45,294 nucleotides of DNA from Escherichia phage vB_Eco_AMO_3701M. Shown here in pieces: positions 881 through 44,009 of this stretch. Numbering within the stretch: position 1 is the first letter of the stretch; each line of letters opens with the position of its first letter. The notes under the pieces are model-generated. The model saw only the letters and a list, made by a program, of their open reading frames with translations, was not told the DNA's origin and ran no database searches. Both the position numbers and the translations under genes were made by a program. Location: the sequence record PQ474795.1; one strand, 5' to 3'.

Positions 881-1427
881 ATGAAGCTGAAACTCAAGCA
901 GCCATCGCCAGAGGTGGTGCAAGCTGCGCATGAAGAAGCTGTTAGTGCGAACCGCCGCCGTAAACGACCTCGCGGTAAACAGAGCCTTTATCAATCATCC
1001 CGTAATTCCGCCGCGTTGTGGGACCCGGACTATTGCGACGAATTAATCGATTTCTTCGACCGACACGTCATGGGAGCTTGTGCCCACGTCCAAAGGTGAC
1101 GAACGCCCGCTGATTCAGGATAAACCACCGTCACTGGCCCGCTTCGCCTTACATATCGGCGTCACTATCCCGATTATTAAGCTGTGGCTGCGTGAGATTC
1201 CCGCGTTTGCAGAAGCCTATGAAACTGCACAGGCACTGGAAGAGGCATACTTCACTGAGACAGGGGCCGCGGGCATCTCTGCTACGTTCGCTGCCGCTAA
1301 GCTGGGCCTCGGCAAAGAGAAACCGGTTGAATCGACCGAAGAAACGGCACCGACTGAGATTGTGTTCAGTGTCGCTGAGCCTGTAGGTAAAATCGTAACA
1401 ACGAATATGGGCGAGGTAGAGGAATGA
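881..1427 (+). CDS. terS: terminase small subunit (frame change near 1047-1099)
   Basis: ORF-track fragments 842..1099 and 1080..1427; WDPDYCDELIDFF and PSLARFALHIGVT...IPAFAEAYETA match the conserved TerS N-terminal HTH pattern; ATG 881 has AAGGGG RBS; directly upstream of terL. Confidence 0.7.
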
Positions 1428-2676
1428 GTATTCAGCTATCCGCCCCACAGGCGTTGTTCCTGAATTGCGATAACAAGTACAAGGCTTACGTCGGCGGATT
1501 CGGCAGCGGCAAGACATTTGTCGGCTGCCTTGACCTGCTTACGTTCATGCTCAAGCACCCTGGTACGCGCCTCGGTTACTTCGGCCCGACATACCCGGCT
1601 ATTCGTGACATCTTCTATCCAACATTCGAGGAGGCAGCTAACCTGCTTGGCCTCGATGTTCTGGTCAAATCCGGTGACAAAGAAGTCGTTGTCACCCGCG
1701 GTAAGACAGTGCTCGGGACCGTTATCTGCCGTTCTATGGATAACCCTGGTTCGATTGTGGGTTTCAAAATCGCTGCGGCGGTCGTGGATGAGCTGGACGT
1801 ATTGAGCCGTGAAAAAGCAGAGCTGGCATGGAACAAAATCGTAGCCCGTATGCGTCTGGTTATTCCTGGCGTAACCAACCACATATCCGTCACCACGACG
1901 CCGGAAGGGTTTAAGTTCGTCTACGCCAAGTTCAAAGAGAACCCGACGCCGAGTTACTCGATGGTGCAGGCTTCTACCCATGAGAACGCGCAGATTCCTG
2001 CCACCGGATTATATTAGCTCACTTACTGAGACTTACCCGGCGCAACTGATTAACGCGTATCTGAACGGTGAGTTTGTCAACCTGACATCCGGCAGCGTGT
2101 ACTACGCCTATGACCGCCGTAAGCATCGCAGCAAAGAGACAATTCAACCAGGCGACACGCTGTACATCGGCCAGGACTTCAACGTTACGAAGAACGCCAG
2201 CGCCGTGTATGTGCAGCGTAAGGACGGCTGGCACGCGGTGGCAGAACTGAAAGGCCTGTTCGATACGCCGGACACCGTGCGCGTCATTACCGAGAAGTGG
2301 AAGTCGCAAGGCCACCGCATCGTCGTTTACCCGGACGCCAGCGGCAAGAACCGCAAGACAAACTCGGCGTCAATCTCAGATATTGCATTACTCCAGCAGG
2401 CCGGGTTTCGATGTCCGCGCTAAATCCGCCAACCCCCCGGTTAAAGACCGAGTTTTAGCCGTGAATACCGCGCTGGAAAAAGGTAAGCTGTGGGTTAACG
2501 ACCACTTATGCCCTGAGATAGCGAAGACGCTGGAGCAGCAGGCATACGACGATAACGGAGAGCCAGCTAAAGACGGCATCATTGACCATATGGCGGATGC
2601 TCTCGGCTACCCTGTAGTTTATGAGATGCCGGTGGTTAAACCAGTAATCAACATCCCGGTGACTTTCGCACTTTAA
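1424..2676 (+). CDS. terL: terminase large subunit (two frame changes near 1980-2017 and 2383-2423)
   Basis: Three ORF-track fragments in different frames; Walker A GGFGSGKT, Walker B VVDELD, C-terminal nuclease region; collinear pieces of one TerL. Confidence 0.9.
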
Positions 2677-2688
2677 GAGGATTATTCA

Positions 2689-4159
2689 ATGTTAACTATG
2701 AACGGTCAGAATCAGGGTGTTAAGACGAAACACCGGGAATGGCTGCACCACTTCGATAAATGGCAGAAGGTACGCCACGCGCTGGAAGGCGACCTTATTC
2801 GATATCTGCGCAACGTCGGGAAGAACGAGCCGGACCAGAAGTACGCCGCCCAGCGCCAGGAAGAATACGAGAACGGCGCTATCTGCTACAACTTCACTAA
2901 ACGTACCCTGGCTGGGATGGTTGGTCACGTGATGCGCAAGGACCCTGAGCAAATTATCCCGCCTGAACTTGAGTACCTGTTACGTAACGCCGACGGTTCT
3001 GGTGTCGGGCTGTGGCAGCACGCGCAGGATACTTTGATGGAGATTGACTCGGTAGGCCGTGGGGGGCTACTGGTGGATGCCCCGGAGACTGCCGCGGCAA
3101 CGGCAGCAGAGCAGAACGCAGGGCTGTTAAACCCGGTCATCGCATTCTATACCGCAGAGAACATCATCAACTGGCGACTGACTCGCGTCGGTTCTGTTAA
3201 CCGCGTGACAATGGTTGTGTTGCGTGAGGTATGGGGATACTCAGAACCGGGAGCAGAGTTCGAAACAAAGTTCGGTGAGCAATACCGCGTTCTCGATTTG
3301 ATTGACGGTCGCTACCGCCAGCGCATTTACCGCTTCGATGCCGAGGGGGGTGGCTAAGGGTGACGTAATCGAGATATTCCCAGAACTGGGCGAACAGTTA
3401 CGCGGTAAAATCCCGTTCACATTCATTGGTGCAAGCAACAACGATGCGACCGTCGACGATGCGCCTTTGCTGCCGTTGGCTGAGCTAAATATCGGACATT
3501 TCCGCAACAGCGCAGACAATGAGGAGTCCAGCTTCGTTGTAGGCCAGCCTACTTTGTTCATCGCCCCTGGTGAGAATATGAGCATGGAGCAATGGAAAGA
3601 AGCTAACCCTCACGGCGTGCGCATGGGGTCGCGTTCAGGTCATAACATCGGTCACGGCGGCAATGCGTTTCTGGTTCAGGCGGGAGAGAATAACCTCGCA
3701 AAACAGAACATGCTGGATAAAGAGAATCAGGCGATCCAGATTGGCGCACAGCTTATCACCCCGACGCAGCAAATCACCGCGGAATCGGCCCGCCTGCAAC
3801 GCGGCGCTGATACGTCCGTTATGGCGACAATCGCGCGTAACGTAAGCATGGCGTACACCGATGCGTTGCGCTGGGTGGCTGCGATGCTAGGGTTGCGTGA
3901 AGGCACAGAGATTGAGTTCAAGTTGAATATGGAGTTCTTCCTGCAACCGATGACTGCCCAGGACCGCGCTCAGTGGATGGCGGATATTAACGCTGGTCTG
4001 CTACCAGCTACCGCTTACTATGCAGCATTGCGTAAAGCTGGCGTAACTGACTGGACTGATGAGGATATTCAGAACGCTATTGAGGATGCACCGTTGCCGT
4101 TAGGCGCGGTTGCTCAGGTAACTGGGGAGATTCCGCAGTCGGTGCAGCAACAGGAGTAA
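2689..4159 (+). CDS. portal protein (frame change near 3302-3357)
   Basis: Fragments 2689..3357 and 3302..4159, about 490 aa together; position immediately after terL; RBS AAGAGGA before ATG 2689. Confidence 0.75.
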
Positions 4160-4164
4160 AGAGA

Positions 4165-4195
4165 AAGGCCCCGTAAGGGGCCTTATCTTTTCTTT
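4165..4195. terminator. bidirectional rho-independent terminator between convergent genes
   Basis: stem aaggcccc / ggggcctt, loop gtaa, T-rich tail; member of a repeated terminator family. Confidence 0.55.
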
Positions 4196-42471: not shown

Positions 42472-42909
42472 CTACTATCGCATTTGATGGAAAGACAATG
42501 GCCTGTGATACACGCGTTGTGTGCGGAAGTAACTGCTACAACACTGACACAAAGATATACGAGAATGATACTTATGTTATAGGTGTAGCGGGTGATGCTG
42601 GAGTTGGCACTATGCTTATCGACTGCCCGTATATCCTCCAGGCCAGACCATTACGAATTCGATTTCGAAGCCCTGGTGTTCGTGAAAGACACAGAAAAGG
42701 TGTACAAAGTCGCGTTCTATAAATCATGGGATTGTGCACTTAGTTCAGTTATTCCGGTTGCTGATGTGTACGCCGCCGTGGGGTCTGGCTCGCCATATGC
42801 ATTAGCCGCTATGGAGTGCGAATATTCGGCGCATGGCGGCGTAGCCGTTGCATCGAAGTTCGACACTAACACCGGCGGCAAGATTATTACCAAACAACTA
42901 TTAAGATAA
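42468..42909 (+). CDS. HslV-like Ntn-hydrolase peptidase (frame change near 42592-42722)
   Basis: N-terminal Thr (MTTIAFDG), VIGVAGDAGVGTML, AAVGSGSPYALAAMEC collinear with HslV motifs. Confidence 0.65.
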
Positions 42910-42968
42910 TTCCTACCCGTGGTATCCTCCAGTTACTGCATACTTAATACGCACCTGGAGGATTCATC

Positions 42969-43278
42969 TTGGATAAATTTACTGAAACAGTGACAGGCTG
43001 GCTTCTCGCTGCCGCGCTAGCCGGAGGGGTAATCGGGCTAAGGCAACATAAGTCCGTTATTTCTGGCCCTATCGACGGATTCTGCTTTATTGCAACTGGC
43101 TTCACCTGCGCAGTATTCGGCGCACCTCTTGCCGCTCAATGGTTCGGCATTACCGGCGAACGTGAGATAGCTGGGCCTGGGATTCATTATCGCTATTCTC
43201 TGGATGCCCATCTATTCCCGCCTCTCCGGTATCGTCGCCGGAGAATACATCTCACGTCGAGGAGGCCCGGATGAATGA
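42969..43278 (+). CDS. holin (frame change near 43190)
   Basis: Hydrophobic helices WLLAAALAGGVIGL and FCFIATGFTCAVFGAPLAAQWF; directly upstream of lysozyme. Confidence 0.65.
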
Positions 43279-43543
43279 GTTATTCTGGTTCGGCGGTATG
43301 CTGGCAATCGGGGGCACATCGCTGTTTAATGTGTACCACCCCAGCGTGGACGACGGATTATTTGGTAGGGTGCTCTATATCCTGACTGCTATTGTCTGCG
43401 CGTCCGGGTGCATCCACCTGTTACAGGGCGGCATGTCGCCGACGCTGCCTGAGACATTAATCACATTAGTTGCGCTGCGTCAGATTCGCCAGGCGTGGTT
43501 GACATACGGAGGACATAAGCGTGTCTCGAAATATTTCAGATAA
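43271..43543 (+). CDS. second small membrane protein of lysis cassette (holin/antiholin)
   Basis: GAGGAGG RBS; two hydrophobic helices. Confidence 0.55.
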   Translation: MNELFWFGGMLAIGGTSLFNVYHPSVDDGLFGRVLYILTAIVCASGCIHLLQGGMSPTLPETLITLVALRQIRQAWLTYGGHKRVSKYFR

Positions 43544-44009
43544 TGGGTTGCAGTTCAAGAAAGCGTGGGAGAAGTTTCCGTGGAACTGCATACAAAGCAA
43601 CGAATGAACGAAAAATACTGGACTATAGGTTGGGGCCACTACGGTCCGGATGTGTATGAAGGGCAGAAGATTACCGAAGGCCATGGGTTGCTGTTACTGA
43701 ACCGCGATATGGCAGTGGCAGTGAAAGCAGTTGATGAAGCCGCACACCCATCACTGACCCAGGCTCAGTTTGATGCCGTGTGTGACCTGGTGTTTAACGC
43801 AGGAACCGGCGTTATCGCGGTCGACTACCGGAACCGGCAAGGCACTGAGGTCAGGGGACATCCCTACCTTACGTGCCAAGTTGGCGCAGTTCATCAACCA
43901 GAACCGAAAACAGGTACTTGGCCTGTGTCGCCGCACGGCCGGACGTCTGGCGCTGTTCGACGGTAAACCGTGGCAGGAGGCTGAGGCTATTGGGAGGGCT
44001 GTTAAATGA
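43521..44009 (+). CDS. endolysin, lysozyme (GH24-like), with at least three frame changes
   Basis: GTG 43521 after GGAGGA; SRNISDNGLQFKKAWE, RGTAYKATNE, KYWTIGWGHYGPDV in three frames; indels at 43578 and in an A5 run near 43610. Confidence 0.85.

Follow-up and report, generated by a model that had tools for sequence, protein, structure and literature searches.

Intact genomes are available for several Kagunavirus phages, including vB_EcoS_UTEC10 (PP291582.1), GertrudWoker_Bas73 (PQ850603.1), fFiEco03 (MT711524.1), and Ivi (PV841871.1). The DNA analyzed here (45,294 nucleotides, referred to as the window) has the same gene order, and its coding fragments share 88 to 100% protein identity with these phages. 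However, the relatives possess one open reading frame (ORF) per gene, whereas approximately 26 genes of the window are present as collinear fragments in different frames. Two further genomes, Escherichia phage M01 (OR061069.1, "partial genome") and CR01 (OR061068.1), are collinear and 97.7% identical, and both are Nanopore assemblies from the same laboratory. The CR01 assembly has a coverage of 248x, whereas that of M01 was generated with Flye from MinION reads only, at a coverage of at most 21x and without short-read polishing (Sci Rep 2023;13:23040, PMC10754912). The M01 annotation contains 104 features, as compared to 73 for UTEC10 and 81 for Bas73. We conclude, with a probability of about 0.95, that the frame changes of the window are base-calling or consensus errors of the public M01 assembly, and hence an artifact and not biology.

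Results

Relationship of the window to the public M01 assembly

The window had no exact record among public sequences, and the nearest entry was OR061069.1. Both have the same length, and they align without gaps over 45,294 b, with 3,204 mismatches (7.07% of the positions) and no indels. Each frame break of the window was found at the same coordinate in OR061069.1 and in its annotation, which is itself split up (DNA polymerase I is listed six times, DNA helicase three times, and capsid twice, among others). The ORF fragments also coincide, and all 104 annotated coding sequences (CDSs) of M01 are open in the window. Judged from this alignment, the window is derived from the M01 assembly, that is, from a Kagunavirus-like siphovirus of the Guernseyvirinae. 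Since the two sequences differ by no indel, every frame break was already contained in the public record, and the layer of substitutions neither created nor mended any of them.

The substitutions were distributed patchily among genes; some CDSs had none, whereas others were affected over a large fraction of their length. Within the annotated CDSs, 74% were located at third codon positions, and the substituted positions often carried alleles of other Kagunaviruses. An annotation-guided synthetic mutation was rejected as the origin of this layer because it follows the true and not the annotated frame. Where the two frames conflict, 52 of 76 substitutions were at true third positions and 13 at annotated third positions, and in coding stretches that lack an annotation, true third positions accounted for 93 of 112. 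We also rejected a single natural donor of the alleles, as none was found. The tail-tube gene of the window is 93.6% identical to that of phage GZMU_E2010 position by position (94.6% by megablast) and 83.8% identical to that of M01, and a window-specific 30-mer had no exact match in IMG/VR.

Extent of broken genes

According to the original prediction, conserved essential genes are affected by pervasive frame changes, which an alignment of homologous proteins to the DNA should reveal. A tblastn search of the window with the intact proteins of Bas73 and UTEC10 agreed with this: many of the proteins matched in 2 to 5 collinear pieces in differing frames, at 88 to 100% amino acid identity. Gene splitting is far above chance level, and every broken gene has a single-CDS annotation in one or both of these intact relatives.

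The split genes for packaging, the head, and lysis are all on the plus strand. They comprise terS (842 to 1427; +1 insertion at 1063), terL (1424 to 2676; three frames, +1 insertions at 1990 and 2402, with CR01 being broken at other positions), the portal gene (2689 to 4159; +1 insertion at 3351), the MuF-like head morphogenesis gene (4575 to 5631; insertions at 5318 [+2], 5322 [+1], and 5463 [+1]), and the Rz/Rz1 spanins (6610 to 7105; +1 insertions at 6688, 6708, and 6987). These are followed by the major capsid gene (7895 to 8946; three frames, +1 insertions at 8339 and 8383), a virion structural/decoration gene (8947 to 9351; +1 insertions at 8954 and 9140), holin 1 (42969 to 43275; +1 insertion at 43171), and the endolysin gene (43521 to 44009; +1 insertions at 43571, 43605, and 43821). 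In the Hoc-like decoration gene (5632 to 6091, plus strand), the start region is displaced by a 1-nt T deletion at 5640 (T5 to T4 in M01).

Two tail genes on the plus strand are each divided among three frames, namely, those for the distal tail protein (19249 to 20641; +1 insertions at 19254, 19744, and 19756 and a 1-nt deletion in the T7 run at 20117 to 20123, common to CR01) and the tailspike (24084 to 25920; +1 at 24407 and 24432, -1 at 25723).

The split genes for replication and repair are on the minus strand. The SNF2 helicase gene (26600 to 28023; three frames) contains +1 insertions at 26891 and 27013 and a compensating pair at 27787 (-1) and 27804 (+1). As many as 16 indel events were observed in the DNA polymerase I gene (29439 to 31628), with a cluster of +1 and +2 insertions at 29546 to 29686, and the exonuclease gene (32654 to 33898) is divided into five pieces by +1 insertions at 33167, 33477, 33703, and 33714 and a +2 insertion at 33810. 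Single deletions were found in the Toprim primase-helicase gene (35883 to 38122; 1 nt at 36558) and in the gene for a 77-amino acid "replication protein" (38184 to 38413; T6 to T5 at 38358, common to CR01). Further breaks on this strand concern the metallophosphoesterase/DNA-repair exonuclease gene (14478 to 15608), with +1 insertions at 14735, 14749, and 14765, all within 30 nt, where the M01 annotation has two minus-strand CDSs joining at 14753/14754; the HNH homing endonuclease gene (28023 to 28516), with a G5-to-G4 deletion at about 28403 to 28406 that is common to CR01, the fFiEco03 copy being intact and 99.4% identical; and the VRR-NUC nuclease gene (28717 to 29034), in which a 1-nt T deletion at 28984, also common to CR01, displaces the first 11 codons.

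The remaining split genes encode a 171-amino acid hypothetical protein (26086 to 26600, minus strand; +1 at 26269 and 26353), a 166-amino acid hypothetical protein (34869 to 35360, minus strand; five small indels from 35148 to 35346), and a 97-amino acid protein together with an HslV-like protease (42177 to 42909, plus strand; +1 at 42290 and 42649, respectively). The region of a 106-amino acid hypothetical protein (38581 to 39093, minus strand) has insertions at 38771 (+1), 38787 (+2), and 39017 (+10). Ten insertions fall within 180 nt at 41974 to 42155 (plus strand), and a second, similar cluster is located at 39536 to 39704. The AlpA-like gene (38413 to 38580, minus strand), which had been listed among the broken genes, is intact and identical to that of Bas73 at 56 of 56 residues; it is the adjoining 77-amino acid gene that is broken.

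Spectrum and context of the indels

M01 and CR01 differ by 140 gaps, 136 of which are not multiples of 3. For the comparison with CR01 and the intact relatives UTEC10 and Bas73, an indel was considered private to M01 when M01 differed from CR01 and CR01 was backed by one or both of UTEC10 and Bas73. This resulted in 84 indels that are confined to the M01 assembly and lacking in its nearest relatives. In 83 of them, the length is not a multiple of 3, and the coding sequence that flanks them is conserved at 88 to 100% amino acid identity. Insertions outnumbered deletions by 70 to 14, and 63 of the 70 insertions had a length of 1 nt. Indel counts per 3 kb were overdispersed (variance of 11.4 and mean of 4.9), and mismatches between M01 and CR01 amounted to 5.4% within 10 nt of private indels versus 2.1% elsewhere. 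The insertion-rich clusters at 29546 to 29686, 39536 to 39704, and 41974 to 42155 contrast with a stretch from about 9.4 to 24.4 kb that is nearly free of errors.

CR01 lacks these 84 indels, and its copies of terS, Rz, the decoration protein, the SNF2 helicase, the 171-, 166-, and 97-amino acid proteins, HslV, holin 1, and the endolysin are intact. It has about 45 indels of its own, 35 of which are deletions, and its own breaks are found in terL, portal, capsid, MuF, connector, tape measure, and metallophosphoesterase genes. Homopolymer deletions in the distal tail, HNH, VRR-NUC, and 77-amino acid genes are common to both assemblies, and the runs seen at common breaks are T7, G4, T5, and C5. 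A T8 instead of the T7 at 20117 to 20123 would give S-V-F-F-K-A, as in phage Ivi. The common breaks occur in separate assemblies, so that on sequence alone they could be real; yet the two assemblies come from one laboratory and platform.

Homopolymer runs were concentrated in the common breaks and in the CR01-private deletions (9 of 35 in runs of at least 4), whereas only 3 of the 84 M01-private indels were in runs of at least 4, as compared to an expected share of 4.2% of the bases. There was no homopolymer enrichment among the 84 private indels, and we rejected homopolymers as the general cause of this class. The proposal that homopolymers account for the breaks holds for the minority class common to M01 and CR01 but not for the M01-private class. 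Of the individual runs that had been named, the T7 near 20110 is a true homopolymer break, located at 20117 to 20123. Neither the A5 near 43610 nor the T5 of TTTTTAAA at 5641 occurs in the public record, which has CGAGAAGT and TTTTCAAAG in these places; both runs are confined to the window.

One point against the reading as Nanopore error is that the private indels are mostly insertions located outside of runs, whereas the textbook error of this platform is the homopolymer deletion. Such an insertion-rich class might be accounted for by low coverage or by mixed reads.

Discussion

Nature of the frame changes

The reading of the frame changes as assembly errors draws on the coordinate identity with the public record, the privacy of the indels, and their spectrum, which we observed directly, and on the platform, coverage, and viability reported for this phage (PMC10754912). 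The platform is error prone, the depth was low, no accurate reads were used for polishing, and the phage is viable although its essential genes read as broken. The original prediction had named indel error as the likely cause, and the data bear this out, since the breaks are private to a Nanopore-only assembly of at most 21x and absent from CR01 and the relatives.

We propose that two classes of error may be superimposed. The first comprises about 85 indels private to M01. Most of these insert one base at an ordinary position outside of homopolymers, and they form clusters in some regions, with additional mismatches around them. They would be random errors in a consensus built from few and possibly mixed reads. 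The second consists of a handful of 1- to 2-nt deletions in homopolymer runs, common with the sister assembly CR01, and probably reflects systematic under-calling of run length by the platform. The genes of the real phage are almost certainly intact.

Alternatively, some or many of the breaks could represent programmed recoding, by either ribosomal frameshifting or transcriptional slippage. A G/GT tail-chaperone overlap at 16557 to 16581 provides a plausible -1 site, and the T7 run at 20117 to 20123, which CR01 also has, would need a -1 shift and looks like a slippery site rich in U. However, the 84 M01-private breaks are not kept even in the 97.7%-identical CR01, and most of them are +1 insertions, for which +1 frameshifting, a rare event, would be required. 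We found no positional conservation of the private shift sites in CR01, UTEC10, and Bas73, where only the G/GT overlap is conserved. Neither were slippery XXXYYYZ heptamers enriched, as 6 of 90 breaks had one at a distance of up to 10 nt, as compared to 4.4 ± 2.0 at random. Recoding is hence very improbable as a general explanation, in line with the earlier expectation that programmed events other than at the G/GT site are unlikely. Genuine ribosomal or transcriptional slippage at the T7 run (GTGTTTTTTTAAGG), with a -1 shift in the M01/CR01 lineage, also appears highly unlikely, and Ivi, whose distal tail gene is the closest among the relatives, reads straight through. If slippage did occur, this lineage would have two forms of the distal tail protein, one short and one full length.

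It is equally hard to credit that the indels are genuine mutations in DNA from a defective or decaying phage population. The M sample gave several Flye contigs (PMC10754912), which is compatible with heterogeneity but provides no direct support for this idea. Against it, the M phage went through three rounds of plaque purification, reaches 1e13 PFU/mL, and releases 150 PFU/cell per burst (PMC10754912). In addition, approximately 26 genes would have to be defective at once, among them terminase, portal, capsid, polymerase, and lysis genes. No decay is seen in the fragments, whose amino acid identities are 88 to 100%, and no relaxed constraint was found in them, the substitutions of the window being mainly at true third codon positions. 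Finally, deliberate perturbation, by which frame changes would have been inserted when the window was derived from the public record, is the least probable explanation and is refuted by the gapless alignment, since the window, although identical to no public record and different from OR061069.1 at 7.07% of positions, differs by substitutions only and has its breaks at the coordinates already seen in that record and its annotation.

Consequences for the public records

The significance of sequencing and assembly error in these records is one of data quality only, and no new biology is implied. Uncorrected Nanopore errors split approximately 26 genes in OR061069.1 and approximately 15 in OR061068.1, and the 104 and 95 "features" of these records contain many gene fragments, such as the sixfold "DNA polymerase I". 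Fragments of this kind can contaminate protein databases, orthologue clustering, and predictors of receptor-binding proteins. Polishing or frame correction of both records is needed before use.

Comparison with the lambda-type G/GT frameshift

On sequence grounds, the G/GT overlap (16557 to 16581, plus strand) would be the only plausible programmed shift in the window, and we do not count it among the artifacts. The -1 frame is open only from 16557, and CGGAAAAG precedes the stop codon of G at 16579 to 16581. A comparison with the lambda-type -1 frameshift applies to this one site only; the other breaks are without such features. The heptamer of the window differs from the lambda type in that it is not a canonical X XXY YYZ, whereas the arrangement is alike: a T ORF in the -1 frame comes after the G ORF (16165 to 16581), with an overlap of only 22 nt that ends in GGAAAAG beside the stop codon.

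Collinear fragments of essential genes

The intact annotated proteins of two Kagunavirus relatives, GertrudWoker_Bas73 (Bas73; PQ850603.1) and vB_EcoS_UTEC10 (UTEC10; PP291582.1), were searched against the window by tblastn. As the original prediction had described, many genes were matched as collinear pieces in differing frames, mostly with 88 to 100% amino acid identity. Broken genes include those for the head and packaging (terS, terL in three frames, portal, MuF, major capsid in three frames, and decoration protein), lysis (Rz, holin 1, and endolysin), and the tail (distal tail protein and tailspike, each in three frames), along with SNF2 helicase in three frames, DNA polymerase, exonuclease in five pieces, primase-helicase, 171-, 166-, and 97-amino-acid (aa) proteins, a 77-aa "replication protein," and an HslV-like protease. 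The HNH gene is also broken, by a G5-to-G4 deletion at approximately 28403-28406; its fused N- and C-terminal reading matches the 165-aa homing endonuclease of a further intact relative, fFiEco03 (MT711524.1), in one piece (99.4% identity), and takes two pieces both in Escherichia phage M01 (OR061069.1) and in its sister phage CR01 (OR061068.1). The VRR-NUC gene has lost its first 11 codons through a 1-nt deletion at 28984, and the metallophosphoesterase gene contains three +1 insertions inside 30 nt, with two M01 coding sequences (CDS) meeting at 14753/14754. Intact genes are those for the scaffold, the connector and tail-tube block (9389-13410), the polynucleotide kinase (PNK), G/GT, the tape measure, the J-like tail protein, the single-stranded DNA-binding protein, and holin 2. 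The AlpA-like gene (38413-38580), the sole false entry in the initial list of broken genes, is also whole (56/56 identical), and its neighbor is broken instead.

Inheritance from a public record

A megablast search of a phage collection returned OR061069.1, entitled "Escherichia phage M01, partial genome" (Guernseyvirinae, Kagunavirus-like), as a single-piece, full-length match. Both sequences are exactly 45,294 b long, and their position-by-position comparison gave 3,204 mismatches (7.07%) and 0 indels. Furthermore, all 104 annotated CDS of the record stay open in the window at unchanged coordinates; therefore, every frame change in the window was inherited from the public record. The annotation of OR061069.1 (104 features) is itself already fragmented, with six entries for DNA polymerase I, three for DNA helicase, and two each for replicative helicase, major capsid, "62 kDa structural protein" (portal), and terminase. 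For this group of phages, misleading RAST-derived product names in the record include "fibritin (wac)," "62kDa structural protein," and "13.88 kDa late protein." The record is linear and titled a partial genome, and the source paper calls the contig circular.

The difference between window and record is a layer of substitutions only. These are patchy by gene, and whole genes are spared; examples are 13439-14478, 19285-20641, and 39094-41151, with none, and 24422-26600, with three. Third codon positions account for 74% of the 2,944 substitutions counted inside annotated CDS. The same preference follows the true ancestral frame in unannotated coding stretches of the record (93/112) and in stretches annotated in the wrong frame (52/76 at third positions of the true frame versus 13/76 for the annotated frame). 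Substitutions are overrepresented at sites that vary in nature, and most of them introduce the natural allele: the window has the Bas73 base at 937 of the 1,291 substituted positions where Bas73 and M01 differ, and of the 200 tail-tube gene sites that differ between M01 and GZMU_E2010, it has the GZMU_E2010 allele at 148. No single donor was found for the window's alleles, and one window-specific 30-mer had no exact match in IMG/VR. The window thus behaves like an M01 scaffold bearing natural-looking alleles without indels, and the layer could have originated from a reference-guided consensus or a homologue-guided in silico change. Because of this layer, two homopolymers initially noted at breaks (A5 near 43610 and T5 at 5641) exist in the window only and are absent from the record.

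Private and shared indels

OR061069.1 was aligned at the base level to CR01, UTEC10, and Bas73. Across 44,611 aligned columns, M01 and CR01 had 1,007 mismatches (97.7% identity), along with 140 gaps, 136 of which were not multiples of three. Indels were considered M01 private when M01 departed from a state shared by CR01 and one or both of the intact relatives. There were 84 of these (83 not multiples of three), comprising 70 insertions (63 of one base) and 14 deletions, with a net gain of 71 nt. Representative alignments are those at 1063 (terS), 1990 and 2402 (terL), 3351 (portal), 8339 and 8383 (capsid), 36558 (primase-helicase), and 43571 and 43605 (endolysin). No homopolymer enrichment was observed among these indels, as 3/84 were in runs of at least 4 nt versus 4.2% of the genome. 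They were clumped (variance of 11.4 versus a mean of 4.9 per 3 kb), with clusters at 29546-29686, 39536-39704, and 41974-42155 and three free stretches of 4.5 to 5.4 kb, and M01-CR01 mismatches reached 5.4% within 10 nt of them versus 2.1% elsewhere. The connector and tail genes (9357-24406) are almost without M01-private errors. The insertion bias and the clumping suggest that depth was uneven or that the M sample contained a mixture of related phages; the source paper mentions several Flye contigs for this sample (PMC10754912).

In CR01, terS, Rz, the decoration protein, SNF2 helicase, the 171-, 166-, and 97-aa proteins, HslV, holin 1, and endolysin are intact. Its breaks in terL, portal, capsid, and MuF are at positions other than those of M01, its metallophosphoesterase is also split elsewhere, and its connector and tape measure, both whole in M01, are broken. 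Approximately 45 indels are private to CR01, of which 35 are deletions (9/35 in runs of at least 4 nt). A third, small class, common to M01 and CR01 against intact relatives, is homopolymer associated. It contains the HNH deletion, T6 to T5 at 38358, T4 to T3 at 28984, a 1-nt deletion at 30259 (C5 in M01), a 2-nt deletion at 44354 (T7 in M01), and the T7 run at 20117-20123, correctly flagged near 20110 as a break site, where the intact relative Ivi (PV841871.1) reads GTGTATTTTTT and T8 would restore S-V-F-F-K-A.

Origin of the frame breaks

Only an Oxford Nanopore MinION (SQK-LSK109) was used to sequence the CR and M phages, with Guppy base-calling and Flye assembly with four polishing iterations, and RAST gave 95 (CR) and 104 (M) features (PMC10754912; Sci Rep 2023;13:23040). 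That paper describes no short-read polishing, and the word "frameshift" is absent from its text. [quoted passage not shown] Such a phenotype requires terminase, portal, capsid, tail, polymerase, and lysis genes. The frame breaks are artefactual, the product of a Nanopore assembly with low coverage and no short-read polishing; the indel error proposed originally is supported by breaks private to the M01 assembly, the Nanopore-only source, and a viable phage. Two classes of consensus error would underlie the breaks. The M01-private indels, which cluster, have extra mismatches alongside, and are predominantly +1 insertions at ordinary sites, may derive from a thin, possibly heterogeneous read set. 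The homopolymer deletions common to M01 and CR01 would reflect systematic run-length under-calling by that Nanopore chemistry, an attribution based on run context and the shared platform.

Programmed recoding fails as a general explanation on three counts: the breaks are confined to a single genome and so not conserved, most would require +1 shifts, and an XXXYYYZ heptamer lies at most 10 nt from 6/90 breaks versus 4.4 ± 2.0 at random. The only credible programmed site in the window, in agreement with the original prediction, is the G/GT tail-chaperone overlap, where the -1 frame is open from 16557, 22 nt ahead of the G stop (16579-16581); directly 5' of this stop, the overlap contains CGGAAAAG, which is not a canonical X XXY YYZ heptamer. 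T is annotated only as a truncated ORF (16680-16943) in the M01 record and as a separate CDS (14843-15199) in Bas73; this CDS aligns with window position 16587 (CTG in the window). Both the viability of the phage and the absence of decay in the gene fragments are at odds with genuine inactivating mutations. Deliberate perturbation, also offered initially as a cause, is excluded by the 0 indels between window and record.

The sole value of the feature is caution over two public records, OR061069.1 and OR061068.1. The source paper assigned the CR phage to "Myoviridae" (31.6-nm head, 24-nm non-contractile tail) and the M phage to Siphoviridae (PMC10754912). Both genomes are collinear, siphovirus-type, and Kagunavirus-like; the reported morphology and the genome of the CR phage do not fit.

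Comparison with related phages

The HNH (I-HmuI-like) homing endonuclease gene (28023-28516, reverse strand) is flanked by SNF2 helicase and a 63-aa gene. In this slot, UTEC10 and Bas73 have a DNA methyltransferase; fFiEco03 and several Salmonella Jersey-like phages harbor the same HNH there (97 to 99% identity). Within the structural block, the tail-tube genes are separated from the tail-chaperone genes by a reverse-strand module (13439-15608) encoding a 184-aa protein, a polynucleotide kinase/3'-phosphatase, and the metallophosphoesterase; this module is conserved in UTEC10, and Bas73 retains the metallophosphoesterase at the same place.
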